In this document: positions 94 to 33,604 of the stretch, piece by piece
How the letters are laid out: the number at the start of each line of letters is the position of its first letter
How positions within the stretch are numbered: the stretch's first letter is position 1
Assembly (NCBI GenBank): GCA_003990765.1
Contig: RBNJ01000305.1
Span: forward strand, 1 to 33,604
Source of the DNA: Jimgerdemannia flammicorona
Lineage: Eukaryota
Direction: 5' to 3'
DNA: 33,604 nucleotides
Program-made: the position numbers and the translations under genes
The notes under the pieces: generated by a model
Databases searched by the model: none
The model's input: the letters and a program-made list of their open reading frames with translations, nothing else
Told to the model about the DNA's origin: nothing

Positions 94-401
94 TAGTACT
101 CTCAAATAAATTAAATTAAGATTAATTTGAATTGAATTAGATTTGAATTTAATTCAAATCAAATTGAGTTTTAATTTGATTTAAAATTAAGAGTCAAACT
201 TTAAAATACAATAACTCAATCAAAATATATTTAAATTTGATAATCTTTATTATATTAAATTCTCTTTAATAAGACAAATTTAACAAACTAAATTTTATCA
301 AATTTGGACAAATTTTAATTGAGTTATTGAATTTCAAAAATTAAGGTTCAAATCAAAACTCAAATTGAATTGAACCTCAATTTAATTTATTCTGAGTACT
401 A
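94..401. mobile_element. Foldback MITE, hAT-like (copy 1)
   Basis: Ends TAGTACTC...GAGTACTA with long imperfect inverted arms. Flanks tacagaac (86-93) and tatagaat (402-409) form an 8-bp TSD differing only by two C>T. No ORF. Homologous to 16280-16626. Confidence 0.8.
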
Positions 402-413
402 TATAGAATATAT

Positions 414-893
414 TATAATATAGTAGATATCTAATCTCAGAAGTATAGCAGATTTCTGTATCTTAAAACTTAATCTTATTCTGACTCTTGCAGAGTTTTT
501 GGAGTATAGAGGTGTGAGTTCAAAGTATATCTATCTGTAGACTTACTAGTTCTCTTGTTTTTTCTTTATTTTGAACTATTTTAATCTGAGGTTCATTTAC
601 TCTAGATACTGAGATATTATATAAGTTTGCTAGCTATAGAGTGACTAAGTTATAACTATGTTATATTTTCTATAAGTCACTTTTTGCAAATGTTGAATCT
701 TTTGACATCTGTCAGGATTTTGCTAATTGCAATAATTTCAACATATGTAGAATCTTAGCAATTGTTAAAGTTTCTATATTGCTGAAATAACTACTATTTA
801 TAAGACTCTACTATATTTGAAAATCAGATTCAGATATTACAATCAAATGTTTATTTCTTTGATTTATATTACTAATTCAAATCAGCTGTCATA
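414..893 (-). repeat. 3' LTR of family A copy 1
   Basis: Aligns with 3489-3936, 11078-11535 and 27509-27982; decayed TG...CA ends; adjacent to PPT. Confidence 0.85.
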
Positions 894-934
894 ACTTTCT
901 TCTGAATAGGTAATTTGTCTTTAAAACATCCTAT

Positions 935-1381
935 TCACTCAAACTCCCAAGTCTTGATTAGTTGAATCTCCTTATACTGTATAATATATATCATTATATT
1001 CTCTCAATATTATCTTCTGATATATCCAAAGTCTCCTAGAGCAACTTTTTAGAAATGAGCTAGGGCTGACTTATTCTTCTTAAATAACTTATACACTCTC
1101 TTAGTAATAATGATCTGAGTGTAAGAGAGCTGACACTCTCTAATTCAATTTTATTTTTCTATTTCTGGTTTTGAGTTTAGTAATTATTCTAACATAGAAC
1201 TTAGTCCAGTTCTATAGATCTTGAAATGTGAAATTTATGATAAGTGTATCTACATTATCTCTGAATACTATTAAAGAATTTCCTATATTGGTAACTCAAT
1301 AGAATACCACTATCTTTCTATAGCTTATTATATAGCACTAGTGATCTTGAAAACTGTGACATTATTTTGTTAATTGATCAT
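935..1381 (-). pseudogene. Accessory ORF3 of family A (decayed)
   Basis: Colinear with 28020-28481 (KITS..., ECQLS.TQI...KRV.KLF, WEFE stop) with many transition-derived stops. Confidence 0.75.
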
Positions 1382-2564
1382 GATATTTCTTAAGCTAGTT
1401 TTAATAGATGGTGGTGGGGATAATTGTATCTGAGAGTTTTAATAGCCAAAAGGTAGTTCCTTTTATATTCTATATAAAATAAGATCCTTTCTACTTAGGC
1501 TTCAGTTTTTATAACTATGAGGCTTCTACTATATTCTAATATATTAGAACTTTTTCTCTAATTTTAATAATATCTAAGGCCTTATAAATCTTTTCTACAT
1601 TATTCTATTATAGAGCCTATATCTTAGTTATATAATTCTTGGCCTTCTTTCTGATTTAGTATAGTCTCTATATCTCTATATCTCTATATTTCTATATAGT
1701 ATCTCTATTAGATAATAGGATTTCTTGAGAACTTTCTTCTCTAAATAGTATTTCTTGAGAGGCAAAATGAGTACTTTGTGATTAGATATTCTAGAGAGCA
1801 GATAATACTATTGGCAGATAGTGATCTCAGTTTTTATAATAATTACAGATCTTAGCAATGATATTCTTGAGAGTCTTATTAGTCCTTTCTACTTATCCAT
1901 TTCTCTGAAAGTGATAGGCTATAGTCTGAATATGCTAGATCCTGTACTTCTTATAGAGAATTCTAAAGAACTCATTTATAAATTCTATTCCTCTATCTAT
2001 AGTTACTTGTATTGGAGTCTTAAATTGGCAGAAGATTTCTTTATAAAAGAAATTGATAATTAACTATATATTGGCTTTCTTAAGGGGTCCTGCTTCTATC
2101 TATTTTGTAAAAAGATCTATGATGATAATGATGTATTAGTTATCAGTTAAAGTCAAAGATAGAGAACTAATTATATCTATTATAATGTATATAAAGAGTA
2201 CTGGTTCTATGTATACTAATCTTAAAATCTGATTTTGTTGATCTTGTTTCTATTTTTAATATTTATCACAGGTCTTGACAAATTGTCTGATATCTTTCTC
2301 TATTCCTAGTCACTATATTGTTCTTCTTGCTTTATTATATATATTTATTTCTCTCAGATAGTTAAGTTCATATACTGATTTCATTACTTACTCCTTCTTA
2401 TATTTGGATATAACTAGTAGCTTTCCTTTTCTCAATATTTCTCTATCAGTTTTAAATTATTTTCATGTTTTGTTGATAATTATTTATATCTATTCTTCCA
2501 GATGTTGAGATATCTTTTGCTTTCTCAAGTAGGTAATAATTCTATAGTAGAACTCCTTATTCAT
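1370..2564 (-). pseudogene. Gypsy integrase remnant
   Basis: Nucleotide-colinear with 28471-29668. Confidence 0.85.
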
Positions 2565-3370
2565 AGTTAGTTTACTGGTTGAGAGTCTCTTGAGGTATCT
2601 ATGAGAGAGTATCTATATTGGCATTGGTTCTTCTAGAGTAATATATGATGGTTACATCATAGGCTTACAACTTCATAATCTATTTAACATAGATTTCTTT
2701 AGATTATCCAGTGGTTAGTAGCTAAGTGAGGGCTGAATAATCTATCTAAATAGTGAAGTATCTTTTGATGAGATAGTAGTGGAACTTTTCTATAGCCCAG
2801 ATAACTGTGAGGTACTCTAACATATATAATTTATATTCTTTTTCAGCCTCTCAGATTCCTTAGCTGAGATATATTATAATATATTCTACTTTATCTTTTC
2901 TCTAAACTAGAACTACTTCTAATCTAACTATACTTATATCTATTTACAGGATGAATTCTTGAGTCCAATTAGGTCTTCTCAGGATAAGTGCCTGGGTCAG
3001 CCTAACTTTAAGTTCACAAATACTTTTTGTTATCTATAAGTCTACTGAAACTTGATGTCCTTATTGAGTTCATAGATTGAGTCTGTAATATTGGAAAATT
3101 CTCTAATAAATCTATGATAATATGAGGCTAGTTCTATGAAGACTTAGGCTTTAGTAACAGTGATAGATCTTAGATATACTGCTGATATAGCATTATCATC
3201 TGCTTTTGTATAGATTGTAGTAACAAATACTACTTTTACTAGGCCTCAGAGACTGAAGAATATGAGGACTACTTGCTGTCTTATTGTCAGAGTCCTTATA
3301 GCAGTATATTGCTTGAAGGTAATGATTGATTCATCTGAAGTATATTTATAGAATACTGGCAGTCTCATAT
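2557..3370 (-). pseudogene. gag 5' fragment fused by deletion to RT C-terminus and RNase H
   Basis: 2557-~3185 matches 29661-30290; ~3186-3370 matches the gag start (33450-33604 and 23254 onward). Confidence 0.8.
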
Positions 3371-3488: not shown

Positions 3489-3936
3489 TATAATATAATC
3501 TCAAAAGTATGATAGATTTCTATATCTTGAAACTTAATCTTGTTCTGACTTTTACAGAGTTCTCAGAGTATATGGATGTGAGTTTGAAGTATATCTGTCT
3601 GTAGACTTATTAGTTCTTTTGCTTTCTCTTTGCTTTAAACTATTTCAATCTGAGGTTTATTCACTCTAAATACTGAAATATTTATATAAGTTTACTAGCT
3701 ATAGAGTGACTAAGTTATGACTATGTTATATTTTCTATAAGTTACATTTTAAAAATATTAAATCTTTTGATATCTGTCAGAATTTTGATAATAGTAAAGA
3801 TTTTAACATCTGTAGAATCTTAATAATAGTTAAAGTTTTTATATTCCTGAAATAACTGTTATTTGTAAGACTATACTATATTTGAAAATTAGATTCAGAT
3901 ACTATGATCAAATGTTTATTTTTCTAATTTATATTA
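3489..3936 (-). repeat. 5' LTR of family A copy 1 (outer end eroded)
   Basis: Direct repeat of 414-871; followed on the minus strand by atttggtatctattagctag, a decayed version of the PBS at 23137. Confidence 0.85.
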
Positions 3937-10953: not shown

Positions 10954-11077
10954 TGTAATAAATTATTACATACTACCTATAAGCTACTGAAATTTCTGAC
11001 AGAAATTTCCTACAGAAATTTTTACAGAATTTCTGACTAATAGTCATAGTTATTCAAAATAGTATAAACATATATAG
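10954..11077 (+). repeat. 5' part of a B-like LTR, interrupted by family A copy 2
   Basis: tgtaataaattatta... is similar to the reverse complement of ~21020-21150. Confidence 0.75.
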
Positions 11078-11535
11078 TGTAATATAGCAGAACTTAACCT
11101 TGGAAGTATGTTGGGTTTCTGTATCTTGAAAACTTGATCTTCTTTGACTTTGCAGAGTCCTCAGGATATAGGGGTGGATGAGTTTGAAGTATATCTGCCT
11201 GCAGGCTTTACTAGTTTCTTTGCTTTCTCTTTACTTTGAACTATTTTGATCTGAGATTTATTCACTCTAAGATACTGGGGATATTTATACAAGTTTGTGC
11301 ACTGATTCTGCTACTAAATATGTGACTAAGTTATGAGTCATTTCAAAAGTATCAAAATATTTTAATATTGTTAAAATTCTATACTATATCAGGTCTTCAA
11401 TTTTGAATCTTTTGAAATATTTAGAAATTGTTGAAATCAAGGACTACTAACTATAAGGCTATGCTAATTTGGGACTAGTGGTAATTAAGTGTCTATTCCC
11501 TATTTCCTTCTTCTAAATTTAGTTCTACTATCACA
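11078..11535 (-). repeat. 3' LTR of family A copy 2
   Basis: TGTAAT...ATCACA ends; PPT complement acttcctcctga follows. Confidence 0.9.
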
Positions 11536-11572
11536 ACTTCCTCCTGAATAGATGGTCTTATCCCTAAAACAT

Positions 11573-12034
11573 CTATTCAAATTCCCAGGCCTTGACAGTC
11601 TATATGGTCTTATACTGTGTGATCTGTTGTATCACTGTCTCCCAATAGTTTTGCCTTACTAACTTAAAATCAGTAGGAGTTATTTCTCACAAGTGGGCTA
11701 GTACTAGTTCATCATCTTGAAATAACTTATGAATTCTTTTGGTGATGGTGATTTGTGAGTAGGAGAGCTAACACTCTGTGATACAATCATCCTTGGTCAT
11801 TTCTGAGCTCTGGTTGAGTATCTGTCTATATTTGAAGTACTCTTGGAACTCTGTCCAATAATAGTAGACCTTGAAGTGCAAAATTTAAAAGAGATGGATC
11901 TGTATGATACTTTGGATACTATCATAAGATTCTTCTATAGTCAGGGGTTCTGTGGTATTCCATTATCTCTTGATAGCTCTTTGGGCAGTACTAGTGATCT
12001 TGAGTGCTGTTGCTGTATATCAGTTATTAGCTAT
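11573..12034 (-). pseudogene. Accessory ORF3 of family A (decayed, frame intact)
   Basis: 462 nt, same length as 28020-28481, with no indels seen; ATG decayed to ATA. Confidence 0.8.
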
Positions 12035-13206
12035 GGTACTTCTTGAGTCAGTTTTGGTAGATGATAGTGAGGATAATTGTATCTGAGAGTTTTTGTAGCC
12101 AAATGGTGGTCTCTTTTATATCTTGCACAAGATAAGGTCCTTCCCACTTAGGCTCCAGTTTTCATGACTATGAAGCTTCTACCATATTCTGATATATCAG
12201 AACCTTGTCTCCTATCTTGATAATCTTCAGAGGCTTGTGAATCTTTTCTACATTATTTCACTATAGTGCCTGCATCTTGGTTATGTAATCCTTGGCCTTC
12301 TTCCTGATTTGGTATAGTCTCTATATTTCTCCATCCACATATTTCCATACAATATCTCTATTAGATAATGGAGTTTTTTGAGAATCTTCTTCTCTGAAGA
12401 GTATTTTCCAAAGGGTAAAATGGATGCTTTGTGATCAAATATCCTGAAGAGCAGATAATGTTATTGACAGATAGTGATCCTAGTTTTCATAGTTATCACA
12501 GATCTTAGTGATAACATACTTGAGGGTCTTGTTGGTCCTTTCTGCCTATCCATTTCCTTGAGAATGGTATGCTATGGTCCAAATGTACTGGATCTTATAC
12601 TTCTTATAGAGAACCTCAAAGAACTGGTTTGTGAATTCTGTTCCTCTATCTGTGGTTACTTATATTGGGGTCTTGAACTGGCAGATGATTTCTTTGTAAA
12701 GGAAATCAGTAATTGACTATATATTGACTTCCTTGAGGGGTTCTGCCTCTATCTATTTTATAAAAAGATTTACAATGATGATGATGTATCAGTTACCAGT
12801 CAAAGTCAAGGGTAGGGGGCCAATTACATTTATTACCATATGGATGAATAGTACTAGTTTTATGTATACTGATCCTGAAGCTTAATTTCATTGATCTTAT
12901 TTCTATTTCTGGTATTTGTCACAGGTCTTAACAAATTATCTGATATCTTCCTCCATTTATTGTTCTTCTTGCTTTATCATATATGTTTGTTTCTCTTAGA
13001 TGACCAAGTTTATATACTGATTTCATTGCTTACTCCTTCTTATATTCTAGTATAACTAGTAGCTTTCCTTTCTTCAATATTTCTCCATCAGTTTCAAATT
13101 GTTTCCATGTTCTGTTGATAATCATTTGTATCCATTCTTCCAGATATTGGGGTATCTTTCACTGTCCCAGGTAGGTGATGATTCCATAGTAGAGCTTCTT
13201 ATTCAT
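12024..13206 (-). pseudogene. Gypsy integrase remnant
   Basis: Begins MNKKLYYGIITYLG; colinear with 28471-29668. Confidence 0.88.
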
Positions 13207-16200
13207 GATTAATTTGCTGGTTGGGGGTTCTTTAGAGTATCTGTAAGAGGATATCTGCATTAGTATTGGTTTTTCCTGAGTAGTGCATGATAGTTATGTT
13301 ATATACTTGCAACTTTATGATCCATCTGACATAGATTCCTTTATATTACCCTATAGTCAGTAGCTAAGTAAGGGCTGAGTGGTCTGTCTGAATGGTAAAG
13401 TATCTTTTAGCAAGATAGTAGTAGAACTTTTCTACAGCCCAGATGACTGCAAGATATTTCAACTTATAGGATTCATATTCTTTTTTAGCTCCTCAGGTTC
13501 CTCAGCTTAGGTATGTAATAACATACTCTACTTTATCTTTCTTTTGAGCTAGGACCACTCCTAGTCCTTGGGCACTTGCATCTGTCTGCAGGATGAATTC
13601 TTGAGTCTAATTAGGTCTTCTGAGGATAGGTGCCTGGGTCAATCTGACCTTAAGCTCATCAAATGCTTTTTGTTGCCTGCCAGTCCATTGGAACTTAGTA
13701 TTCTTCTCATTGAGTTTGTAGATTGGGTCTGCAATATTGGAGAATCCTCTGATAAATCAGTGGTAGTATGAGGTAAGTCCCATGAAGACTTGGGCTTTGG
13801 TAACTATAGTGGGCCTTGGGTATGCTGCTACTGCTTGAATCTTGAGAGAGTATGTATGTGTTCTGTCTCAATTAATGATATGGCCAAGATAGATGATCTT
13901 GATTTCTGTAAACTTGCACTTCTAGGACTTGATATAAAGACCATGCTGTCTCAGCTTCTTTATTATCTACTGGATATACTGCAGATGTTCCTCAGCTGTC
14001 TTGCTGTAGATGATAATATCATCTATATAAATCATCATCCATCTTTCCATATTATAGCAGAAGATTTTATTCATTATTCATTGAAAGCTTGCAGGGGCAT
14101 TATATATTCTAAATGATATTCACAGATAGATGTAGGTTCTGTCTAGGGTGATGAAGGCTGATTTCTCACTTGCTGTTTCTGTGAGTCCAATTTGGTGGAA
14201 TCCTGAGTATAGATCCAAGGTGCTGTAGTACTGTACTTCATCTCCCAGAGTTATAAGGATGTCATTGATGAGGGGCAGTAATTGGCAATCCTTCTTGGTG
14301 ACTATGTTGAGCTTTCTGTAATCAATGCAGAGTCTTGGGATGAATTCTCCAGACTTGTTTCTTTTCTTTAGGACTAGTATAACTGGTGAAGACCAGGGGC
14401 TGCTGGTCTCCTTGATGATACTAGCTTCTTTCATTTGCTTGATTTCTTCTCTGAGTCACTCTCAGTAGACTGGTGGGACAGGTCTTACCTTCTGGTAAAT
14501 TGGTTCAGTATCTCCAGTATCTATATTATGATAGTAGTGTGGAGTCTTTTCTTTGATATTCTTGAAGTCTGTAGCGAGAACATCTTTAAATTTGTGCAGT
14601 ATTTTCTTGAGCTCTATCTTAAGTGGGAATTCATTTCCAATAGTATAGCTATACCTATTCATAGTTTCCTCCTTTTTGTACTGCAGCTCAGTGATTTTGG
14701 TATTAGCAAATACTCCTCTTCCTATAGATCAGAATCCTTTTCTTTCTCTTTCTGATTTCTTCAACTTCTTGACTTCTAAAATTCTTGGCTGAAGAATTGG
14801 GAAGATCAACATCTGTGCCAGTTAGTCCTTCTTCTTGATTGGGAATGAGATCATAGGTTCCTAGCAATAAGTAGTATTTCTCCAATATAATTTGAATCAA
14901 TGACTTCTTCTTCAATTGTGATTTCACTCCTAGCTAGGCTGCTTCTTGTCTTGAGGATCCCAACATGGTTCTTTGGAATAGTCATCTCCAGATCAGTTGC
15001 AAGTAGGGTGGTTGTCTGAGGTTTGAGTATAGTTTTCTCTACTATGGCAATATCTATTCTGGCTGCATTTTCTGACTTATATTCTGGTAAGACTGTATCA
15101 GGATGAATTTTCTGAATCTTGATCTTAATTTTCTCTTCATCATCACTATCTTCAAAGAGTGCTAGTGGTTTGTCATCCTCTTCTTCTTTCATTTTCTTTT
15201 CTTCTCTTATCTGTTTCTCAAGGGCCTTCTCTCTTCTTTGATGGTAGATCTCCTTGATTTTGCTGGTACACTGATAATACTCATTGATATGCTCTGTATA
15301 GTACATTTAGATCCCTTGGGGGCAGACTCCTTATAGTGCATATCCTCCTATAATCTTCTTGCACCAGTCTTCTTCACTCATCCATCTGATTTTCTTCTTC
15401 TTTTTCTGAGTTGTCACCATGTAGGCTTCTTCTTGTTCACTCTTTTCTTTCTTCATCTTGGGTAGGACTCCTTTGTTGATATTGATAGAAATTCACATCT
15501 TCTGTCTATAATATATGATCTGCATCTTCTGAGCATTCAGATCAATTACTGCCTTGGCTTTGTGAAGTCATTGATTGCCAATGAGGATGTCATAGTTGAT
15601 TGCATTGGTCACAATTACATCTACTGAGATAGTTGCTTCTCCAAACTTAATGGGAATATCTTGGATCTTTCCCAGAGGTGTGGCTCTTATACCATCTGCT
15701 GTAATGAACACCAATTTGGTTACTTCTTCAACTTTCCAACCTAGGTGGTCTACTGCTTTCTTGCTGAGGAGGCATCTTCCTACTCCTGTATCAATAATAG
15801 TCTCAAAGACTCTATCCTTGATTTGACAGGTTACATAGGCAGAGATCTTACAGTTATCTTTGCTTTCTTATCCTGAGTCCTCTTGAACATTATTGGCCTC
15901 AGTTATCTTCCATCCTTACTATTTGGTTGTTTCAGTAAGTCCAAACCTTATTTGCTATCTGAATGTAGGTATTTCTGCTAGCTGGCCAAAGATTGTATTG
16001 ACCTTTTGTTGACTGAGATTCTTGAAGATATCATACTTGAAGGTCTTGGTTTTGCAAAGCTTTTTCTCCTTTTCTCCTTCACTGACTATAGCGGTTCCTT
16101 AGATGATATCTTGAATAACCTATTCTAGCTCCATATCTTGATCTGTTTCTTCACCTTGACTTTCTGTAGTAGTCTCCATCTGCTTCTTCACTGGGTTCTT

Positions 16201-16279
16201 CTTGGGTCTTTCTGGTGGTCTCTTGTAGAGTTTTTTGTAGATATTCTTCTTAGTGGTCTATGCAGGATAGGTCTCTCAC
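13199..16279 (-). pseudogene. gag C-terminus-protease-dUTPase-RT-RNase H remnant
   Basis: SSPWSSPVILV...RLCIDYRKLN, LDLYSGFHQI (14120-14434); ILKTRSSLA...VIDSNYIGEI (14851-15306). Confidence 0.9.
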
Positions 16280-16626
16280 TACTTCCAAATAAATTGAATC
16301 AATTTGAAATTAAATCAAATTGAGAGTTATTCAAATTGAATTAAATTGAGAATTTTTCAATTTAAATCAAGTTTGAATCAAATCGAATTTGAATCAAATT
16401 GAGGATCTGATTCAAATACTATTTTCAAAATATAATAACTTGATGAAAATATGTCTAAATTTAATAGTTTTTAGCTTATTAAATTCCTCTTATATAGAGG
16501 AATCTTATAAGCTAAAGATTATTAAATTTGGATATATTTTTATTGAGTTATTATATTTCAAAAAATAGAGTTTGAATCAAATCTCAAATTAAATTAGACC
16601 TTTAATTTGATTCATTGGGAGTACTA
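16280..16626. mobile_element. Foldback MITE, hAT-like (copy 2), left terminus clipped
   Basis: Right end ...gggagtacta; long inverted arms centred near 16490 (ttagcttat...attcctct / agaggaat...ataagctaa); homologous to 94-401. Confidence 0.8.
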
Positions 16627-21626: not shown

Positions 21627-21931
21627 TGTAATGGTGACCTCAGAATGATGACATCAGCACAGGAGACAGCCTTTCCTTGCAAGCCACCAGATCAAAGCAC
21701 AAGAAGATCATATGGCATACAAGATGAGCAATGATGACCAACTGTGAGTCATTGTGACCACAGCATAAGTATCCTAAAGAATATAAAAGAAGGATCAAGG
21801 AACTGCAGTAGCAGCAACCAACAAGAACCACCAATCCCAAAATAACTCAAAGACTTACCACAAATGAAATACCTGCTGCCCACCAAACCTCAAGATCAAG
21901 GAACCACCAAGGTATCTCAGTCGAGGAAAGG

Positions 21932-22723
21932 ATGTTCCAAGACATCAGAAGAGCCATGGGGACCCGCTCAAGAAGGACTCCTAGTGTCAACCTGGGTACT
22001 GCAGACCTCTATCACTTCATTCTCTACTGCCGCAAAATGGAAACAAGGATCACCATTGCCACTAAATGCCTCCAAATGTGGCAGGAATACGAAATAGGAA
22101 ACCTCCTCTACCAGGAGTTCCCACAGGCCAGCCCTCAAGAGCTACAAGATGCCACTCCCATGGACCTATGTAAGGTAAGAACAGCAAAGAAGATCTATCA
22201 GATCTTCAGGCATGCACCATGGTTGATCCCCAACTTGGAGTATGTTAGAGTCTCAGACTTCAGAGATCTGTCATCCCACCATATCAATGCACTAGAAGCC
22301 AGGGTAGCTGCAGAAACCCAGTCCACTATCACCCTCAATAGTGAAGAAGTAGAAGACTTCTGGCACCCTATCCTTCAGGACAACCCAGACCAATTCCTGC
22401 AAGGATTGATCTCAGTATTCCAAGGCCCAAGCATCCAGGTTAGATCCCCCCAAGACCCCACATTTGTCCCCTATTTTGTGGAAGAGAACCTCATAGACTG
22501 GAGAGCTCCAGATCTTATTCCCGATTTTCCCACCACTGACGAATATGATGACGTCATTGGCGATGACGTCATCCCATGCGACTTCAACATACGTGAGACG
22601 CACGACATACCCGAAGTACGCGAAACGCATGACCTACATGACAAATTCGCGGATCTCATCTCCTTCAGTGATGATGATGATAATGATGATGAAGCCCCCA
22701 TAATCCTGAACTTTCTGCTCTAA
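21932..22723 (+). CDS. 263-aa protein of unknown function inside the LTR; N-terminal half similar to family A ORF3, acidic C-terminal tail
   Basis: Uninterrupted ORF; by-eye match WQEYEIGNLL...TAKKIYQIF...L..V...F..L..HH vs WAEFQEYFKLGQVL...IAKRIHKLF...L..V...F..V..HH. Confidence 0.75.
   Translation: MFQDIRRAMGTRSRRTPSVNLGTADLYHFILYCRKMETRITIATKCLQMWQEYEIGNLLYQEFPQASPQELQDATPMDLCKVRTAKKIYQIFRHAPWLIPNLEYVRVSDFRDLSSHHINALEARVAAETQSTITLNSEEVEDFWHPILQDNPDQFLQGLISVFQGPSIQVRSPQDPTFVPYFVEENLIDWRAPDLIPDFPTTDEYDDVIGDDVIPCDFNIRETHDIPEVRETHDLHDKFADLISFSDDDDNDDEAPIILNFLL
22548..22573. promoter_or_regulatory. Two CRE/ATF-type palindromes (ATGACGTCAT, GATGACGTCATC)
   Basis: Exact TGACGTCA twice, 15 bp apart, ~330 bp upstream of the TATA box. 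Confidence 0.55.
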
Positions 22724-22894
22724 GTTCTTTGTTACACCAGATAATGCCAGCACCGGTATTCTGAGGTGACATGAAATTGTTCCAGCACAGATATTTTGAT
22801 GTGATACTAAATAATGCCAGCCCTGGAACTTAGTAGTTTTAGTTATTGGAATTTATATTTAGCTTTATATCTTAGCAACCATTGAATTATATTT

Positions 22895-22930
22895 TATATA
22901 AATACCCCTCTTATTTCCTCTGAAATAAAG
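22895..22930 (+). promoter_or_regulatory. LTR TATA box and polyadenylation signal
   Basis: tataaata...aataaa, the same arrangement as in family A LTRs. Confidence 0.6.
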
Positions 22931-23136
22931 TCAGTTTCTCTCAGTGCAATACACAATCTCTTGCAAACAATCTAAGAGATAACAAGATAGTTAAAGATAA
23001 GAAGTTTGAGGACTATAAGACCTTGGAAAGGCACTCCAATAAGAACTTGCTTATAACAACTTGAGTTAGTCTAAGAGATATACCTTGAAGAGAATCTGGC
23101 ATATTTGAAGGACTCAGCGACTACTACATGACAACT

Positions 23137-23153
23137 TGGTGCCCATTGGCTGG
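23137..23153 (+). other. Primer-binding site TGGTGCCCATTGGCTGG (tRNA not identified)
   Basis: TGG 3 nt after the LTR CA end; decayed equivalent at 3469-3485 in A copy 1. Confidence 0.75.
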
Positions 23154-23253
23154 TGATTCAAGACAAATCCCTCACTTTCAAGCTGAAAAATGAACAACCC
23201 CCACAACAACTACCCTGACTACAAGAGTCACCCCTGCAAGAATTCAAGACAAG

Positions 23254-26200
23254 ATGGAAATGTGTCCCCCCACATTCTATGGATATACTACTGAAGAGTC
23301 AATCCTGACCTTCATTGAAGACTTTGAACAATTCGCTGCCATACGAGCTCTTGGTGTGGATGCTCAATTGGCCCTTCTACCAGTCAGCCTTAGAGGACCT
23401 GCCAGAGACAAGTTCAATGCAGCCACTATTGCTGGTGCTGATGCAGTCAAACTTGCCAACATGAAGGTCTTCCTCAGAACAACATATTATATCAAAGAGA
23501 TCAAACAAGCTCTCAAGGATCAACTCAATACTATCTGCCAGGGACTTAGTGAAGATCCCAACTCATTCTATATCCGAATTTGCCACCAGATTGTCTTGGC
23601 TGGCTATGATGATGCCCTCAAGGAACAAATAGTGGATTCAACCTTCCTCAAAGGAGTTCACCCCGAAATTGTCCTAGCAATCTGGTCTACCCCAGCTGCA
23701 CTGACCCTTGATCAGAAAGTGGTCTTTGCGCAGAGATATTAGACTGCCAGACATCCTGCTGAACACTCAATGGAGAAAATAACTGGTATCAAGATGGAGC
23801 CATCAAAGCCAACTAGCATCCTACCTGCCACAGTTGTAAACAGACAACCAACCTCACCTACCCCCAAGATAGCCAAAGCTGACCCAGTGGAAGAACTCAC
23901 CAAGCAGTTTGCCAAGATGACTGCACACCTTGGTGATGTTGTTAGAGAAGTCCAAAGCACCAACAGGAGACCAGTGCAGAGATTTGCAGCTGCTACAGAA
24001 GAATGCAATAACATCACATGCTTCAGATGTGGAGAAGAAGGCCACTATGCAAAGAGTTGCATGACTGAAACAAGACACAAAGCCCAACCAAGCAATGCTA
24101 GCAGAACCAGAGAACAAACCAATGCAGTAGTCATTGAGGAGATTGGTGACACTGATGAAGAGTATTATGAGGAGCTTGAATTCTACCCTGCTACTGAAGG
24201 TACCAGAACCCAGTCCAAGCCCTATGACAAGAAGAGCAATAGCAAGCCAGTTGGAAGACCAAAGAAGACCCCAGCTGTCACTATTCAAAGCAAGACCCAA
24301 CCTGAGGAGATTGATCAAGACATGGAGTTAGACGAAGCTGTCTACCAAATTATTGAAGGCACTACTCCAGTCTCAGGAGAAAGTGAAAGCAAGGAGGAAC
24401 AAGAATCAGACATCACCCTCAAGGTCAAGAAGTTTCACCCTGAAGCCAAGATCCCAGAATACAAGACTGAAGGAGTCATAGGAATGGACCTTGCCAGCAT
24501 TCAAGATGCTACCCTTGAACCACAGACCACCACCCTACTTGGCACTGGAATTAGAGTCAAGCTGCCAGAAAACCATGCCAGAATCATCAAGACCAGAAGC
24601 AGTCTGGCCAAAAGCGAAATCTCAGTTGAAGGAGGAGTAATTGACCCTGATTACACTGGCGAGATCTTTCTCATAGTCAGAAATCAGAACCACACCACCC
24701 CCTTCGAAGTCAAGAAGCATGACAGGATTGGCCAGATGCTGATCCATGAAGTCAAGAAGCCCAAGATCATAGAAGCCATCGAACTCATCAAGACCAAGAG
24801 AGGAGAACAAGGCTTTGGATCTACTGGAAGAGGAGCCTATGCTGCCACTAAGCTTACTGAGCTTGAGTATAAGAAAGACAAGGACCAGAACAAGCACACA
24901 TATACCATTGGAGAAAACTTTCCCCTGGAGGAACAACTTCTCAAGATCCTGCACCAGAATGAAGGAGTACTTGCTACAGACTTTAGGGATATCCACAATC
25001 AAGAACCCAAGTACTACCATGAAGTTGACACAGGTGATACCAAGCCTATCTACCAGAAAGCCAGACCCATACCACCTGCCTACAGAGAGTGGCTGCGAGC
25101 TGAACTCAAGGAAATGGAGGAAGCCGGAATCATCAAGCAAGCTATCAGCCCCTGGGCCTCACCCATTGTCCTAGCCCCGAAGAAAGGAAGCAAGCCTGGA
25201 GAGTTTGCACCAAGACTCTGCATTGACTACAGGAAGCTCAATGCCATCATCAAGAAGGATAGGCAGCTCTTGCTGAATATTCAAGAAATCCTTACCACTC
25301 TTGGAAGTAAAGCCAAATACTACACTACCTTGGATCTGTTCTCAGGCTTCCATTAGATCGGTCTCACTCAAAATGTTAGTGAGAAATCTGCCTTCATCAC
25401 ACCTGATGCCACCTATATCTACTTGCAAATGCCATTTGGAATGTGCAATGCCCCAGCAAGTTTCCAGCGAATGATGAACAGAGTCTTCAGCAATGAGATT
25501 GGAAAATGGCTCTTTGTCTATGTTGATGATATGATCATCTTCAGCAATACTGCATGGGAACATATCAATCACATACAGCTAGTCCTCAAGAAACTCAAGG
25601 AGCATGGCCTCTACATCAAGTCCAAGAAATGTAAGTTTGCAGCTCAAGAAATCGCCTACCTAGGACACCTCATCAACCAGACTGGAATCCACACAGACCC
25701 CATGAAGATCGAGGCTGTTGCAGCCTACCCGAGACCTAGAACAACCACAGAAGTCCACGCCTTCCTTGGACTGGCCAGCTACTACAGAAGATTCATCAAA
25801 GAATACTCCAACATTGCAGCACCTATCTACGAGCTACTGAAGAAGGAGACCAAATTCGAATGGACCAAGGAGTGTCAAGAAACCTTCAATGAACTCAAGA
25901 CCAGGTTGACCCAAGTACCCATCCTTAGAAGACTAGACTGGAACCTAGAATTCATCCTGCAGACAGATGCAAGTGCTATAGGACTTGGAGCAGTCCTAGC
26001 TCAGAAGAAAGATGGACATGAATATGTCATCTCCTATGCAAGCTGAGATACCTGCAGAGCAGAACAGAACTACGAGTCATGCAAGCTTGAATGCTTAGCA
26101 GTGGTCTGGGTGGTAGACAAGTTCCACTACTACCTAGCTGGGAAACACTTCACCATTCAAACAGACCATTCTGCTCTTGCCTGGCTATTCCATACTCTGA

Positions 26201-26349
26201 ACCCCAAAGGAATATATGCCAGATAGATCTACAGGCTGCAAGAGTATGACTGTACTATCAAGTACCACTCAGGAAAGACCAACACCAATGCTGATGCACT
26301 CTTGAGGACACCCCGAAACACCCCCATCAAGACTATTCAACATGAATAA
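23254..26349 (+). pseudogene. Single-frame gag-dUTPase-RT-RNase H polyprotein (protease missing; four premature stops)
   Basis: ORFs 23254, 23770 and 25423 are in frame; CFRCGEEGHYAKSC knuckle; RLCIDYRKLN, MPFG, YVDD, TDAS, TDH, ADAL; stops at 23740, 25354, 26044 and 26224 are single transitions. Confidence 0.95.
24418..24828 (+). other. Trimeric-type dUTPase domain
   Basis: All five motifs present: GMDL, RSSLA, GGVIDPDYTGEI, DRIGQML, RGEQGFGSTG. Confidence 0.95.
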
Positions 26350-27508
26350 GGGGCTATACTACATATGGATTAATCAGCTACCTTGGGCAGCAGAAGATGC
26401 CCAACCACCTCGAACCCTGGACAATCACCATCATCAACTGGACTTGGAAACAGTTTGAATTAGACAACACTACACTCAGAAAAGGAGGAAAGCTAGTAAT
26501 ACCTTAACACAAGAAGTATCAAGTAATGAAGGAAGTATATGAGCAAGGATACTTAAGAGAAACCAACACATACGACAAGACAAGAAGAACTATGTGGTGG
26601 CCCAAGATAGAAGAAGACCTGTGCCAATTTGTCAAAGGGTGTGATAAGTGCCAAAAACAGAAATAAGATCAGTAAGACCAGGCACCTGGATCACCAAGAA
26701 TTGAGCCTATCCCCTTCTACTACATTGCAATGGATATCATTGGACCACTACCAGTAACACTATCAGAAAACTACTATATTATAGTTATTGTAGACCTCTT
26801 CACCAAATAGATAGAGGCAGGAGTATTACAAGAAGCCAATGCCCTCTCTATAGCTGATTTCCTACACCGAGAAATCATCTGCTACTACAAGACACCAAAG
26901 CAAATCACAACAGACTGCAGCACAGAATTTGTTAATGGATTCCATGAGATAATGTACCAGAAATACAAGATCCAGCACATCAAGACCACTGTGTACCACC
27001 CTCAAGGAAATGGACAGACAGAGAGAACCAACAAGACCCTCAAGAACATCCTAACAAAGATCTCAGAGACATACGAGAATTGGGATAACTATCTCCCAAC
27101 TGCCCTCTCTGTTCTATGAGACATATGGTCACAGAGCACACATTTTACCCCATAAGAGCTGCTCTTTAGAGAAGAAGATTCTAATGGAACCTCAGCCATA
27201 AATCTAGACCTAACTTAGAGACAGATTGATGCAGAAATCTGGAGACTACACCAAATCAGAAAGAAGGCTGAAGATTACATCACCAAGTTACAAGCACTGA
27301 CAAGAAAGAATGTGGAAAAGAATCACAAGGTTCTAGAACCCATCCAAATTGGAGAAAAGGTTCTACTGTATTGAAATATGGTAGAAGCCTCATGGTCATG
27401 AAAACTGGAGCCCAAATGGGAAAGACCCTTCTACATGTAAGATATCAAGGGAACTACCTTCTGGCTTAGAAAAATCTCAGGGACCATACTGCCTACTATA
27501 GTATATAG
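26342..27508 (+). pseudogene. Integrase of element D (separate frame, decayed)
   Basis: WWP...CDKCQ, MDIIGPLP, VDLFTK, ITTD, YHPQGNGQTERTN, GPY/F-like KLEPKWE. Confidence 0.92.
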
Positions 27509-27982
27509 TGTAATGTAGCGGACGCTTACTCTTGAAAGTACGTCGGATTTCTGTATCTTGAAAACTTAACTATTCTGACTCCCGCAGAGTCTCTTGAAGT
27601 TGTAGGGGAGGGTGGGTGAGTTCGAAGTGTATCTGCTTGCAGGCTTACTAGTTCCTTTACTATCTCTTTGCTTTGAACTATTTCGATCTGAGGTTTATTT
27701 CCTTGAAGATACTGGGTTATTTATACAAGTTTACTAGCTATGAGATGGCTAAGTAATAAATGAGTCATTTGGACTTTGTCGAAATATTTAGACAGTGTCT
27801 AAATACTATACTAAATCGAGATGTTCAATTTGGATAATGTCTAAGAATTTAGACAATGTCTAAGAATTTAGACAATGTCGAAATTGAGGACTGCTAACTA
27901 TAAAGCTATACTACTTTGGGAATGGGTGCGATCAAGTGTCTATTCTCTATTTCCTTCTTCCAAATTTGGCTGTACCATCACA
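27509..27982 (-). repeat. 3' LTR of family A copy 3 (474 bp)
   Basis: Minus strand TGTGATG...CATTACA; TATA and AATAAA at ~27695-27725. Confidence 0.92.
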
Positions 27983-27994
27983 ACTTCCTCCTGA
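27983..27994 (-). other. Polypurine tract (tcaggaggaagt)
   Basis: Abuts the LTR; identical at 11536-11547, decayed at 894-905. Confidence 0.8.
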
Positions 27995-28019
27995 ATAGAT
28001 GGTCTCATCCCTGAGGCAT

Positions 28020-28481
28020 CTATTCAAACTCTCAGGCTTCAACTGTCTGTATGGTCTTATACTGTGCAATTTGCTGTATGATTGTTTCCCAATGATGTCT
28101 TCTCACTTTCTCGAAGTTGGTGGGGGTTACTCCTCTCAGGTGGTCTATTGCTGGTTCATCTTCTCAGAATAACTTGTGAATTCTTTTGGCGATAGTGATC
28201 TGTGAGTGGGAGAGTTGACACTCAGCAATCCAGTCCTCTTTGGTCTTTGCTGGATCCTGATTGAGCACCTGTCCAAGCTTGAAGTACTCTTGGAATTCTG
28301 CCCAATATTGATAGGCTCTAAAGTGCGAGATCTGAGAGAGATGAGTCTGTACAATATTCTGAATATCCTCATAGTATAGCTCTATGGTCAGAGGCTCAGT
28401 GGTGTGCCATTGTCTTTTGATGGCTCTTTGGGCAGCACTAGTGATCTTGAGTGCCATCACAGTACTTTTGTTACTGGCCAT
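28020..28481 (-). pseudogene. Accessory ORF3 of family A, 153 aa, unknown function (two premature TGA stops)
   Basis: Track ORF 28164-28481 continues past TGA as EDEPAIDHLRGVTPTNFEKVRRHHWETIIQQIAQYKTIQTVEA(W)EFE stop. Confidence 0.85.
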
Positions 28482-29668
28482 GATATTTCTTGAGTCAGTT
28501 TCAGTAAATGGTAGTGGGGATTATTGTGCCTGAGGGTTTTCATAGCCAAAAGGTGGTCCCTTTTATATGTATCTTGTACAAGGTAAGATCCTTCCCACTT
28601 AGGCTTCAGTTTTCATGACCATGAAGCTTCTACCATATTCTGATATATTAGGACTTTGTCTCCTATCTTGATAATCTCTAAGGGCTTGTGGGTCTTTTCT
28701 GCATTCCTCCATTGTAGTGTCTGCACCTTGGTTATGTAATCCTCAGCCTTCTTCCTGATTTGGTGTAGTCTCTGTATTTCCATGTCCATATGTTTCCATA
28801 CAGCATCTCCATTGGATGATAGGGTTCCTTGAGAACATTCTTCTCTAAATAGCATTTCTCGAGGGGTAAAGTGGGTGCTTTGTGATCAGATATCCTGGAG
28901 AGCAGATAATGCTATTGGCAGATAGTGATCCCAGTTCTCGTAGTTATTACAGATCTTGGTAATAATATTCTTGAGGGTTTTGTTAGTCCTTTCTACTTGT
29001 CCATTTCCTTGGGGGTGATAGGCTGTGGTCTGAATGTGCTGGATTTTGTACTTCTTGTAGAGAACCTCGAAGAGCTGGTTCATGAATTCTGTTCCTCTAT
29101 CTGTAGTTACTTATATTGGGGTCTTGAACTGGCAGATAATTTCCTTGTGGAAGAAATTGGTGATTGACTGTGCATTGGCTTCCTTGAGGGGTCCTGCTTC
29201 TATCCACTTCATAAAAAGGTCTATGATGACAATGATGTATTGGTTACCAGTCAGGGTTAAGGGTAGAGGGCTGATTACATCTATTGCTATATGGGCAAAT
29301 GGTACTGGTTCTATGTGTGCTGATCCTGGTGCTTGATTCCGTTGGTCTTGTTTCTGTTTCTGGCATTTGTCACATGTCTTGACAAATTGTCTGATATCTT
29401 CCTCCATCCCTGGCCACCATATTGTTCTTCTCACCTTGTCATATATATTCATTCCTCCTAGATGGCCAAGTTCATATACTGATTTCATCACTTGCTCCTT
29501 CTTGTGTTCTGGTATGACCAGTAGTTTTCCTTTCTTCAGTGTTTCTCCATTGGTTTTGAATTGTTTCCATGTCCTGTTGATAATTGTTTGTGTCCATTCT
29601 TCCAGATGTTGGAGCATCTTTCGCTGTCCCAGATATGTGATAATTCCATAGTAGAGCTTCTTATTCAT
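28471..29668 (-). pseudogene. Integrase, no chromodomain
   Basis: (H)ELGHLG...CDKCQ, AIDVI, IDLFMKW, YHPQGNGQVERTN, IGDKVL...; ends LKKYHGQ stop. Confidence 0.93.
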
Positions 29669-32600
29669 GATTGATTTGTTAGTTGGAGGTAGTTCAAGGT
29701 GTCCATGAGAGAGCATCTGCATTGGAATTTGTTCTTCTGGGGCAGTGTACGATGGTTACATCATAGGCTTGTAACTTCATTATTCATCTGGCATAGATTC
29801 CCTTGGGTTGTCCAGTTGTCAGTAGCTAGGTGAGAGCTGAGTAGTCTGTCTGGATGGTGAAGTGTCTTCTGGCCAGATAGTAGTGGAACTTTTCCACAGC
29901 CCAGATGACTGCAAGGTATTCCAACTTATAGGACTTGTATTCTTTTTCAGCCCCTCAGGTTCCGTGGCTAAGATATGCAATGACATACTCTTTTTTGTCT
30001 TCTTTTTGAGCTAAGACTGCTCCTAGTCCCTGTGTACTTGCATCTATCTGAAGGATAAATTCTTGGGTCCAATTGGGTCATCTGAGGATGGGTGCCTGAG
30101 TTAGTCTGATCTTGAGTTCATCAAATGCTTTTTGTTGTCTGCTGGTCTACTGGAACTTGGTATCCTTCTTGTTGAGTTTGTAGATTGGACCTGCAATGTT
30201 GGAGAATCCTCTAATGAATCTGCGATAGTAAGAGGTAAGTCCCATGAAGGCTTGGGCTTCTGTGACAGTAGTGGGCCTTGGGTATGCTGCTACTGCTTGT
30301 ATTTTGAGAGGGTCTGTGTGTGTTCCATCTCGATTGATAATATGGCCAAGATAGGAGATCTTGATTTCTACAAACTTGCACTTCTTGGGTTTGATATAAA
30401 GGCCATGTTGTCTTAGTCTCTCCATTATCTACTGTATGTGCTGCAGATGTTCCTCAGGTGTCTTGCTGTAGATGATTATATTATTGACATAGACCATCAT
30501 CCATCTTCCCATGTCATAGCAGAAGATTTTGTTCATCATTCGCTGAAAGCTTGCTGGTGTATTACACATTCCAAATGGCATTCGTAGGTAGATGTAGATT
30601 CCGTCTGGGGTGATGAAGGCTGACTTTTCACTTGCCATTTCTGTGAGTCCGATTTGGTGAAATCCTAAGTATAAGTCCAAGGTGCTGTAGTACTGTGCTT
30701 CATCTCCCAGTGTTATAAGGATGTCACTGATGAGCGGCAGTGGTTGGCAATCCTTCTTGGTAACTGCATTGAGCTTTCTGTAGTTGACACAGAGCCTTGG
30801 GGCAAATTCTCCAGGTTTGCTTCCTTTTTTCGGGGCTAGTACAACTGGTGAAGACCAGGGGCTGCTGGCTTCTTTGATGATGCCGGCTTCTTCCATCTGC
30901 TTGATTTCTTCTCTGAGCTATTCTTGGTAGGCTGGCGGGACAGGTCTTGTCTTCTGATAGATTGATTCAGTATCTCCAGTATCTACCTCATAATAGTAGT
31001 GTGGGGTCTTTCCCTTGATATTCTTGAAATCTGTGGCAAGAACATCCTCGAATTTGTGGAGTATTTTCTTGAGTTCCTCTTTGAGTGGGAATTCATCTCC
31101 AATGGTGTAACTGTGCTTACTTGTGTTTTTCTCCTTCTTATGCTTGAGTTCGGTGATCTTGGTACTGGTGAATACTCCTCTTCCTGTAGATCCAAATCCT
31201 TTCTTTCCTCTTTTCATTTCCTCCAGGTTCTTGACTTCTTTGATTCTTAGCTGTATGATTGGGAAGATCAACATTTGTGCCAATTGGTCCTTCTTCTTGA
31301 CTGGGAATGGAATTGTAGGATTGTGGTTCCTAGCAATGAGTAGAATTTCTCCAGTATAGTCTAAATCAATGACTCCTCCTTTGATTGTGATTTTGCTTCT
31401 AGCCAGGCTGCTTCTTGTCTTGAGAATCCCGACATGATCCTTTGGGATGGTCATCTCTAGTCCAGTTGCGAGTAGGGTGGTTGTCTGGGGTTCGAGTACA
31501 GTTTCTTCTACTGTAGTGATGTTTATTCCGGCTGCGTTTTCTGACTTGTATTCTGGCAAGACTGCATCAGAGTGGATCTTTTAAATCTTGACCTTGATTT
31601 CTTCTTCATCATCACTGTCCTCCAGGAGGGCTGGTGGTTCGTTGTCTTCCTCCTTCTCTTCTTCCTTGATCTGTTTTTTGAGAGCTTTCTGCCTTCTTTC
31701 CTGGTAGATCTTCTTGGTTCCGATGGTGCACTGGTAGCAATCATTGACATGCTCCATACAGTACATCTTGATTCCATGAGGACAGACTCCTTGTGGGGCA
31801 TAGTCTTCTGTGATCTTCTTGCACCATTCTTCTTCACTCATCCATCCAACTTTCTTCTTCTTTGGAGTAGTCACCATATAAGCTTTCTCTTGCTCACTCT
31901 CTTCTTCCTCCATATTGGGCAGGACTCCTTTGTTGACATTGATGGGAATTCGTATCTTCTGTTCCTGATAGGTGATCTGCATCTTCTGAGCATTAAGATC
32001 GATTACCGCCTTGGCTTTGTGAAGCCATTGATTGCTGATGAGGATGTCATAGTTGGTGGCATTGGTTATGATTACATCTACTGAGATTGTTGCTCCTCCG
32101 ATCTTGATAGGAACATCTCAGATCTTTCCCAGAGGTGTGGCTCTTGTGTCATTGGCTGTGACGAATACTAGCTTAGTTGCTTCTTCCACATCCCAACCTA
32201 GGCGATCTGCTGCCTTCTTACTGAGGAGACATCCTCCTGCTCCCATATCAATGATGGCTTCAAAGGTTCTATCTTCGATTTGGCATATTGCATAAGCAGA
32301 GGTTTTGCGATTGTCCTCACTTTCTTCTCCTGAGTCCTCTTGAACATTATTGGCCTCAATTATCTTCCATCCTTGTTCCTTGGTTGTTTTGGCAAGTCCA
32401 AACCTCATTTGCTGTCTGAATATTGGGATTTCTGCGAGCTGACCAAAGGTTGCATTGACCTTTTATTGACTGAGATCCTTGAAGATATCATACTTGAAGG
32501 TCTTGATCTTGCAAAGCTTCTTTTCTTTTTCTTCTTCACTGGCTGGAGTGGTTCCTCAGATGATATCTTGAACTGCTTACTCCAGCTCAATATCTTAGTC

Positions 32601-33604
32601 CATCTCTTCGGCTTAGCTTTCTGTGTCAGTTTCCATCCACTTTTCCAATGAGTTCTTCTTGGGTCTTCCTGGCGGTCTCTTGTAGGGTTCTTTGTGAGCA
32701 TCCTTCTTAGTGGTCTGAGCAGGATAGGCCTCCCATTCCTCTTCATCGGATTCTCTGATTTCTTCAAAGGTGATTGTATTGGCCTGCTCCTTGTTTCATG
32801 TGGCATTGCTTGGTTGAGCCTTGCATTTGGTTTCACTTATATATTTATAGGAGTAGTAGCCTTCTTCTCCACAGCTATAGCAGGTACCTTTCTTCTTGTC
32901 TGAGGTAGCAGCAAACTTCTGAACAGGGTGGTAATCTCTTCCTCAGATTTCCTTTACCACATCTCCCAGGTGGGCAGTCATTTCAGCAAACCTTTTGGTG
33001 AGTTCCTCCATAGAGTCACTGTTCTTTTGCTGCTCTGTAGCTTTTGGCTGAGGTGTGTTTCAATTGATCATTGTGGTGGGGATCACACTGGTTGCCTTGG
33101 GTGCCTCAATTCTGACTCCTGTAACTCTCTCTATTGTATGGTCTTGTGGGTGTCTGGCTATCCAGTATCACTGAGCATAGGTGACCTTCTGTGGCAGATC
33201 CAGAATCACTGGTGATGAGCAGATGGCCATGGCTATTTCTGGATGGACTCCTTTCATGAAGGTTGCTTCGGCTACTTGATCTCAGATAGCAGCAGCATAA
33301 TCTGCAAGAATTATCTGATATCAGATTCTGGTATAGAATGTGTTTGGGTCCTCGCTCATTCCTTGGCATGTTGTATTGAGCTGATACTTCAGGGCTTGCT
33401 TGATCTCATCTGTGTAATATGTATTTCGAAGCTAGGTCTTCTGTGCTGTCAGTATGGCATCAGCATCATTTCCTGCATGGGTTGCAGCTGTGAATACTGC
33501 TCTGGCAGGGCCTTGTAGGCTGAAGGGCATGAGGGCTACTTGCTGTGCTGCTGTCAGAGTCCTTACAGCAGCATACTGCTCGAAATCGTCAATGAAGGTG
33601 ATGA
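29661..33604 (-). pseudogene. gag-protease-dUTPase-RT-RNase H polyprotein
   Basis: AIIDMGAG protease site (~32235-32260), dUTPase 31182-31598, RT motifs 30429-30896, decayed CCHC ~32840-32885. Confidence 0.95.

Follow-up and report, generated by a model that had tools for sequence, protein, structure and literature searches.

An integrase reading frame apart from Pol in a clade of Ty3/gypsy-type retrotransposons, and its possible expression by termination-coupled reinitiation

Long terminal repeat (LTR) retrotransposons and retroviruses are taught to obtain integrase (IN) by proteolysis of a Gag-Pol polyprotein, while a frameshift or readthrough between gag and pol fixes the ratio of Gag to Pol. 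A contig of Jimgerdemannia flammicorona (GenBank assembly GCA_003990765.1, contig RBNJ01000305.1, positions 1 to 33,604, analysed in full and here called the window) raises the question of whether some such elements make their integrase differently: a preliminary description, made from the letters alone, reported that in four copies of a retroelement the IN is split from the RNase H (RH) frame by an overlapping start and stop codon. The window (33.6 kb, 36.6% G+C, zero N) holds retroelement remains throughout, and no host gene is recognisable among its open reading frames (ORFs) outside the transposable elements. Self-comparison and translation place the four copies and one pair of repeats as follows:

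~387-3183, minus strand: copy c1, 5'-deleted, between direct repeats and without its 5' half
~11050-16300, minus strand: copy c2
~27500 to the window end, minus strand: copy c3
~21800-27500, plus strand: copy D
429-871, minus strand, paired with 3493-3936: long terminal repeats of c1, direct repeats 85% identical over 444 nucleotides (nt)

Mutual nucleotide identity in self-comparison is 74-80% among c1-c3 and 65-70% between D and these three; therefore the four copies represent only two lineages. All are dead, each with numerous in-frame stops, and tblastn with an intact relative reveals further indels in c2. Pfam and tblastn with the intact relative give the element plan as gag (CCHC), aspartic protease (PR), dUTPase, reverse transcriptase (RT) and RH in one frame, then IN. 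Domain content and order, the LTRs and the type of integrase identify the element as a Ty3/gypsy-type (Metaviridae-like) LTR retrotransposon, with the long terminal direct repeats (in c1) and the order gag(CCHC)-PR-RT-RH-IN (Pfam) expected of one. An IN within one Pol polyprotein, a further feature of the group, is lacking in all four window copies and in five related metagenome loci (L002-L005 and L009). The ORFs and junctions concerned are:

29661..33604, running past the window end, minus strand: c3 ORF1, gag (CCHC)-PR-dUTPase-RT-RH, a single frame with many nonsense codons (dUTPase E 1.9e-25)
28471..29668, minus strand: c3 IN ORF (ORF2), zinc-binding H2C2 plus catalytic core (PF17921 E 4.9e-18), at least five in-frame stops
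23194..26349, plus strand: D ORF1, gag CCHC-dUTPase-RT-RH, one frame, three stops in RT-RH, protease segment missing
26342..27515, plus strand: D IN ORF, several in-frame stops, its frame moved once more by a private 4-nt insertion at ~26360-26363
29661..29669, minus strand: c3 junction CATGAATAA, RH-frame stop TAA at 29663-29661, IN ATG at 29668-29666, start and stop overlapping by 8 nt, IN frame +1
13199..13207, minus strand: c2 junction CATGAATAA, arranged as in c3
2557..2565, minus strand: c1 junction TATGAATAA, arranged as in c3
26341..26349, plus strand: D junction CATGAATAA, the only copy with the RH frame open from the ADAL codons to TAA

Motif search shows the positions given in the preliminary description to be exact: ATGAATAA lies on the plus strand at 26342-26349 and its reverse complement at 2557-2564, 13199-13206 and 29661-29668, the preceding base being C in three copies and T in c1. 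Three more TTATTCAT matches (14067, 16769 and 29780) are unrelated to the junctions. A MAFFT alignment of the four junctions is gap-free between the ADAL codons and xATGAATAA, which bears out the equal spacing from ADAL to the motif that had been described for all copies; the accompanying statement that the RH frame runs on to the TAA holds for D only, since nonsense codons intervene in c3 (TGA and TAA), c2 (TAA) and c1 (TAG and TAA). With the intact relative as tblastn query, ORF1 and IN lie in frames -3 and -1 in c3 and -2 and -3 in c1, RH and the IN start lie in frames -1 and -2 in c2, and D passes through +1, then +2, then +3 past its private insertion; IN is therefore +1 relative to RH in all four copies, starting at the embedded ATG as reported. 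Both high-scoring segment pairs of c3 ORF1 are in frame -3, gag included. The c3 integrase keeps a single frame from 29668 to ~28570, and a private 4-nt insertion near 28566 shifts its last ~30 codons. Upstream of the ATG the IN frame is open for 12 codons in D and 29 in c3; neither alternative frame stays open beyond the first 8 nt of the IN ORF in the window family and L002.

Alignment also confirms the private 4-nt insertion that had been noted in D; it lies 11 nt past the motif, and other copies in four sequencing runs lack it. At window position 26360 the contig depth of run X1 mostly carries the insertion (2.76 of 160.6 lacks it), and in runs X2, X3 and X8 much of the depth is without it; one sample may contain multiple copies of D's dead, insertion-bearing variant. 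Thousands of family contig pieces from the four runs (at least 80% likeness) were compared with the window; the differences listed include no indel at either junction, and near the junctions they consist of the 4-nt insertion private to D and one compensated pair. These contigs are probably DNA and hence weak as transcript evidence. From gag to RH, the reading frame is continuous at window 29697-33596 (minus strand) and at L004:1055-6007, without a gag/pol frameshift or stop; the element's sole frame break precedes the integrase.

Is the offset more than decay? The invariance of the 9-mer ATGAATAAG was considered as evidence and rejected: in 1928 four-way columns, of which 51.5% are invariant, chance alone would yield about two invariant runs of 9 nt, and two occur, this 9-mer being one of them. 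Motif invariance alone is not beyond chance, and the weight of the split rests on selection and on relatives. By the Nei-Gojobori method, the ratio of nonsynonymous to synonymous divergence (Ka/Ks) for RT-RH between D and c3 or c2 is 0.13-0.19; for IN it is 0.13 between D and c2, and between D and c3 the nonsynonymous difference (pN) is 0.195 versus a saturated synonymous difference (pS) of 0.75. Synonymous sites between D and the c lineage are in general saturated or close to saturation, gag is unalignable between them (~40% nucleotide identity) and pol is 60-73% identical. Between c2 and c3 Ka/Ks is 0.18-0.24, and the two wrong frames give 0.5-1.5. In view of the low Ka/Ks in the +1 frame after the lineages split, both lineages therefore kept replicating under selection on the +1-frame integrase. 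These values support the RH/IN offset as an ancestral, selected feature rather than a product of random decay. The argument of the preliminary description against decay thus stands on selection and on the relatives described below, and not on the conservation of the motif, which is within chance.

Intact relatives carry the same split. A protein search with the c3 integrase as query gave 261 matches, and the figures here refer to the best 120 of them. The query ran to 28460 in the pre-insertion frame, with its last ~37 residues out of frame, which accounts for the 91% query coverage of the matches and leaves the results unaffected. The matches are mostly stand-alone integrases (median 419 residues) that are 36-70% identical to the query, with scores of 270-607 bits. 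No close fused RT-RH-IN relative was found: the best protein longer than 706 residues reaches 31% identity and 178 bits, and no fused one exceeds ~33%. P0001 is an uninterrupted D-type IN of 433 residues whose short N-terminal extension is the RH tail read out of frame. L002-L005 are metagenome contigs with intact elements in which RH and IN lie in different frames. ORF1 of L004 comprises 1651 uninterrupted codons (CCHC 315-331, PR 512-602, dUTPase 1007-1134, RT 1252-1412, RH 1477-1605) without IN, which follows with H2C2 and rve domains in the next ORF; L002 has an ORF1 of 1577 codons that is open at the contig end, an IN ORF of 418 residues with H2C2 and rve, and a contig that re-enters gag at its end. 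The junctions of window family and relatives are laid out as follows:

Window family: IN +1, 8-nt overlap
L002: IN -1, GAA TGA, with ATGA as a 4-nt overlap
L003: IN +1, 11-nt overlap
L004: IN -1, 10-nt overlap
L005: IN -1, stop, 2 nt, ATG
L009: IN -1, first ORF1 stop 92 nt upstream of the ATG, another ORF1-frame TGA overlapping the ATG; ambiguous

L009 looks like a decayed ATGA type. Matches to RH and to IN occur together in 46 of the 80 metagenome loci. The two share a frame in 40 of the 46, which are without exception distant relatives with IN identities of 27-33%, and differ in frame in six, namely the split loci L002-L005 and L009 and a decayed fused-type copy, L039. No clade member was found in viral contigs (8 loci, at most 32% identity) or genome contigs (29 loci, mostly below 35% over long matches). 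The preliminary description had held that a continuous RH-IN frame in intact members would mark the offset as an inherited lesion; L002-L005 and P0001 keep the split, and close relatives include no fused form that was found.

Among the 120 ORF1 relatives listed, 19 bear a dUTPase; none of these 19 has an rve or Integrase_H2C2 domain, and 18 of them end 12-31 residues past the ADALSR motif. A representative search with the RT-RH of D returned a list dominated by long gene models with several matched stretches, which says little on architecture, and one further ORF1, P0287, that ends 30 residues past ADALSR. A related group of ORF1 proteins (P0483, P0485, P0491, P0492, P0495, P0497-P0499, P0501, P0502, P0504 and P0505) is without dUTPase or a recorded integrase domain; its members have 76-404 mostly acidic residues past ADALSR, several end in ...ELD or ...PLD, and P0502 reads on into a segment resembling the integrase N-terminus.

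In an integrase tree of 79 sequences, the 38 split sequences all fall on the same side of one branch with a Shimodaira-Hasegawa-like approximate likelihood ratio (SH-aLRT) support of 99, and among them the +1 and -1 members are interleaved. The tree comprises every third N-complete stand-alone match, the four split loci, both window lineages, every second 'longer' match with more than 250 aligned residues, and 17 fused loci; its proteins are called split from ORF boundaries alone. The clade amounts to at least ~100 protein clusters at 90% identity, plus the intact elements, and the nearest stand-alone integrase clusters in the Atlas are from Mucoromycota and Rotifera.

What is conserved at the junction is an AUG with an upstream stop within ~11 nt. 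The word (C)ATGAATAA, which the preliminary description had put forward as the conserved element, is specific to the window family, and its relatives vary in overlap. Among the best 120 IN relatives, the homologous Met is the start in 94 (one of which, P0083, the aligner probably misplaced); five more begin 2-31 residues further upstream and retain the Met, and 21 are N-truncated, such that the Met is absent in none of the 99 N-complete proteins. The AUG lies four residues ahead of a conserved N-terminal module (MNxxLYYGLxxYL), in which L5 and Y6 are each present in 77 of the 99. Fused relatives have the same module (…SPWYADIANYL…) without the Met; in the N-terminal alignment, the column holds M in 13 of 13 split and 0 of 12 fused sequences. 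For a random IN codon of the same genes, the probability of an alternative-frame stop no more than 11 nt away is ~0.17, and this proximity is observed in all four overlapping lineages (4/4), an unlikely outcome by chance (roughly 1e-3 if the lineages are independent). On this evidence we regard the separation of IN from ORF1 as very probably the genuine architecture of the clade, with its age, the selection on it and the conserved AUG and stop proximity read from the comparisons above.

A third frame follows the integrase:

28167..28481, minus strand: c3 ORF3, 104 codons from the ATG at 28481, embedded in the 'KKYH' codons of IN, whose stop (28473-28471) ends 11 nt further on
L002:5951-6649, L003:2986-3453, L004:7154-7636 and L005:2403-3119: ORF3 of relatives

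ORF3 follows integrase clade-wide, its ATG embedded in the conserved C-terminal 'KKY(H)' codons of IN, and the IN stop comes 11 nt after that ATG in c3 and 20, 29, 53 or 125 nt after it elsewhere. In a six-sequence comparison the ORF3 products are weakly similar (c3 and L004, E 5e-6; L002 and L005, E 1.5e-7), and that of c3 is also weakly like that of L003; none matches a Pfam family at E up to 0.01. The normal functional plan, as deduced from these ORFs, is thus one of three frames: ORF1 for gag-protease-dUTPase-RT-RNase H, ORF2 for integrase alone, and the small ORF3.

How might such an integrase be translated? An IN outside the Pol polyprotein, with its own conserved start codon placed on an upstream stop, suggests that ribosomes restart there. 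On the full-length RNA, a fraction of the ribosomes that finish ORF1 would stay bound and reinitiate at the IN AUG (termination-coupled reinitiation), and IN output would be lower than that of Gag-PR-RT-RH. The frame of IN is +1 or -1 while the stop stays within ~11 nt of the AUG, a pattern that disfavours frameshifting and favours termination-coupled reinitiation. The window family and L002-L005 combine a stop and restart within ~20 nt with AUG as the restart codon. We prefer this mechanism and grant coupled reinitiation about an even chance, both the coupling and its quantitative role being inferred. Among the three mechanisms listed in the preliminary description, +1 frameshifting fares poorly, termination-reinitiation fits best and a subgenomic or spliced mRNA retains some probability. 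A broader proposal is offered tentatively, at somewhat less than even chances: that a species-rich branch of LTR retroelements in soil eukaryotes uses its full-length RNA as a true polycistron (ORF1, integrase and ORF3), with structure-free termination-coupled reinitiation and with stoichiometric control at the RNase H/integrase boundary instead of Gag/Pol.

Several observations weigh against reinitiation. Retroviruses express downstream overlapping frames from spliced RNAs. No RNA run is among the sequencing runs that match the window, and at the DNA level the RH/IN split is seen in only 5-6 independent lineages, in one of which (L009) the first ORF1 stop is the distant one given above. Stop proximity could partly be a by-product of N-terminal codons, since a TGA is present within ATGAAY and 56 of the 99 N-complete integrases have N as residue 2. 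Not every junction of the element looks coupled, given the spread of the IN/ORF3 overlaps (11-125 nt). Folding of 150-nt windows up- and downstream of the AUG in seven sequences (14 folds) detected no structured RNA: z-scores range from -1.2 to +1.9, none below -2 (upstream, -1.2 to +1.65), with positive values in four of the seven upstream windows and five of the seven downstream ones. A k-mer search for a motif shared by the linkers, which are C/A-rich and G-poor (9-23% G), found only CCCCA, in 5 of 6 sequences, and its sharing may merely reflect proline codons. By contrast, known reinitiation after long ORFs depends, in the cited account, on structured elements or a viral factor (PMC10275272).

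The main rival to reinitiation, which we consider unlikely, is a dedicated RNA for IN, perhaps with ORF3, either subgenomic or spliced (in cis, or in trans to a spliced leader), on which the conserved AUG would come first, as for retroviral env; the nearby stop would then only reflect compaction. Such an RNA would fit the AUG kept in 99 of 99 N-complete relatives, the failure of folding to detect a structured reinitiation element, and the variable IN/ORF3 overlaps of 11-125 nt, which look less coupled; Rotifera, which use trans-splicing, are also among the nearest Atlas clusters. It leaves unexplained why all overlapping lineages have the ORF1 stop no more than 11 nt from the AUG despite the change of frame, and no AG acceptor is conserved just upstream, with none within ~20 nt in c3, L003 and L004. 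The window linkers contain no GT dinucleotide, which makes a cis intron spanning the junction unlikely, and among the contigs of the four runs a single one skips a stretch (28993-29069, 75 nt, in X1) and none skips the junctions, weak evidence given that these are probably DNA. Internal ribosome entry at the unstructured C/A-rich linker, by shunting or in the manner of an internal ribosome entry site (IRES) and independent of ORF1 termination, is improbable; a junction no more structured than its shuffles and a linker with only 9-23% G would suit it, but it has no positive support and does not explain why the stop tracks the AUG.

Programmed frameshifting, +1 in the window family at GAA-UAA-G, would fuse RNase H to integrase in the manner of Ty3 GAG3/POL3 or antizyme. 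The frames do overlap, the IN frame is open upstream of its ATG, and a stop codon in the A site stimulates +1 shifts. It is nonetheless a very improbable explanation: IN is -1 in L002, L004, L005 and L009 and +1 in the window and L003, all in one clade; the Met is kept in 99 of 99 N-complete relatives versus 0 of 12 fused ones, and would be dispensable in a fusion product; the stop of L005 comes ahead of the ATG; and neither a canonical slippery heptamer in the L002 or L005 overlaps nor a downstream structure in the folds was seen. The fixed shift direction and conserved shift-prone site of the Ty1, Ty3 and antizyme type are thus missing. Finally, the offset could be an inherited 1-nt lesion of non-autonomous copies, without function, as might be supposed from four window copies that are all dead and represent two lineages only; this reading is already contradicted and barely credible, in view of the IN Ka/Ks of 0.13-0.24 after the lineages parted, the same split in intact elements, a whole clade of stand-alone integrases with no close fused form, and no frame-restoring indel among the differences listed at either junction for the family contigs of the four runs.

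Comparison with known systems relates the preferred mechanism, termination-coupled reinitiation, to established cases of restart and sets the architecture apart from its nearest relatives. Ty3/gypsy elements with a dUTPase are described from bdelloid rotifers (Vesta, Juno and TelKA) and basidiomycetes, with a pol that includes IN and mostly a gag-pol frameshift (PMC5408684). The window element resembles them in its gag CCHC, the rare dUTPase between PR and RT, the RT-RH-IN order, a GPY-type integrase C-terminus and an extra ORF3; it differs from Vesta, Juno and TelKA, compared by description, in that gag to RNase H form one frame (c3 and L004) and IN is a separate AUG-initiated ORF (PMC5408684). 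The portion of that source cited here does not mention a split IN for the Vesta, Juno and TelKA elements (PMC5408684). The PR-dUTPase-RT arrangement is also shared with the dUTPase-rich Ty3 load of Entomophthora, as described in part of PMC11105155. Ty3 of Saccharomyces joins GAG3 to POL3 by a +1 programmed frameshift (PMC5911963). The window element belongs to the same superfamily, with a downstream frame in +1 and a product ratio presumably set at the boundary; it differs from Ty3 in that the boundary is RNase H/IN instead of Gag/Pol, the direction varies among relatives, the AUG is conserved and a shift heptamer was not found.

Reinitiation after long ORFs, as summarized in the cited part of PMC10275272, takes place with start and stop within ~20 nt of each other, the start may precede the stop, and AUG is preferred. 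In caliciviruses and influenza B virus with termination upstream ribosome-binding sites (TURBS), in hypovirus CHV1 (UAAUG) and in victoriviruses (AUGA), start and stop are shared or close and a lower yield of the downstream product is expected, as in the window element (PMC10275272, PMC2699510). The window element differs from these systems in being an LTR retrotransposon. The TURBS type is marked by a structured upstream element with a stretch complementary to 18S rRNA; upstream of the IN AUG, folding gave no excess of structure and the motif search no conserved word beyond CCCCA. SART1 is a retrotransposon case of reinitiation, with UAAUG coupling of ORF1 to ORF2, and the window element is similar in being a retrotransposon with an overlapping stop and start for the second ORF on a full-length RNA (PMC10275272). 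Unlike SART1, a long interspersed nuclear element (LINE) that needs a downstream RNA structure, the window element is of LTR type, is split inside pol and has no downstream structure that was seen by folding. The Caulimoviridae translate a polycistronic pregenomic RNA by reinitiation that needs a viral transactivator (PMC5902531, PMC10275272). They are Ty3/gypsy-related reverse-transcribing elements with consecutive close or overlapping ORFs, like the window element; unlike it, they need the transactivator and are without integrase, and the ORF3 of the window element has no Pfam match that would mark it as a transactivator homologue. No LTR element with IN as a separate, stop/start-coupled ORF was found in the full-text literature searched, with subscription journals, Repbase and bioRxiv supplements outside its scope.

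Some further features of the locus and its relatives are recorded here. In D (window 23743-25353, plus strand) only ~126 residues separate the CCHC knuckle from the dUTPase and no protease match is present, whereas c3 retains the protease; tblastn of L004 ORF1 on D skips L004 residues 343-995. The D subfamily may rely on protease provided in trans, yet P0001 shows that intact integrase of the D type does occur elsewhere. The protease of c3 (window 32121-32462, minus strand) has the active-site triplet D-M-G, which in the relative P0287 is D-T-G; the c3 triplet is probably one of that dead copy's many transition mutations. Between window 25800-30400 and family contigs of the four runs, differences are nearly all transitions, in both directions: in run X1 there are 116 A>G, 143 G>A, 126 C>T and 123 T>C, with 1-7 of each transversion. 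Words of the window sequence are matched only in soil metagenomes and one organism, at most 0.22 of them. A separate RT fragment at window 8644-9024 (plus strand; PF00078 E 9e-7, just under the gathering score) is unrelated to the four copies. In L010:469-1991, L011:166-1705 and L014:292-1630, IN ORFs that are 33% identical, with the N-terminal module MDRQLYD..., are preceded by a short unrelated ORF instead of RNase H. This upstream ORF ends in TAATG in L010 (stop and start share one base) and 4 nt before the ATG in L011; these loci may represent a different kind of element with the same junction style. That the upstream ORF of L010, L011 and L014 corresponds to the acidic tail of the dUTPase-less ORF1 group was considered and rejected, with no match found.

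The clade thus departs from the taught plan of LTR elements: Gag, protease, dUTPase, RT and RNase H form one protein, and the integrase stands alone behind a stop/start overlap. Annotation pipelines that expect a fused Pol would score such split elements as broken or non-autonomous. If reinitiation is true, LTR elements would have gained a new expression strategy, and the clade would offer a natural eukaryotic case of restart after an ORF of 1,300-1,650 codons without an obvious TURBS element. If the polycistron reading is true, these would be the first reinitiation-dependent LTR retrotransposons, either in parallel with the polycistronic strategy of caulimoviruses or as a relic of it. Reinitiation would also provide a handle on why integrase dosage, not RT dosage, would be limited in these elements.

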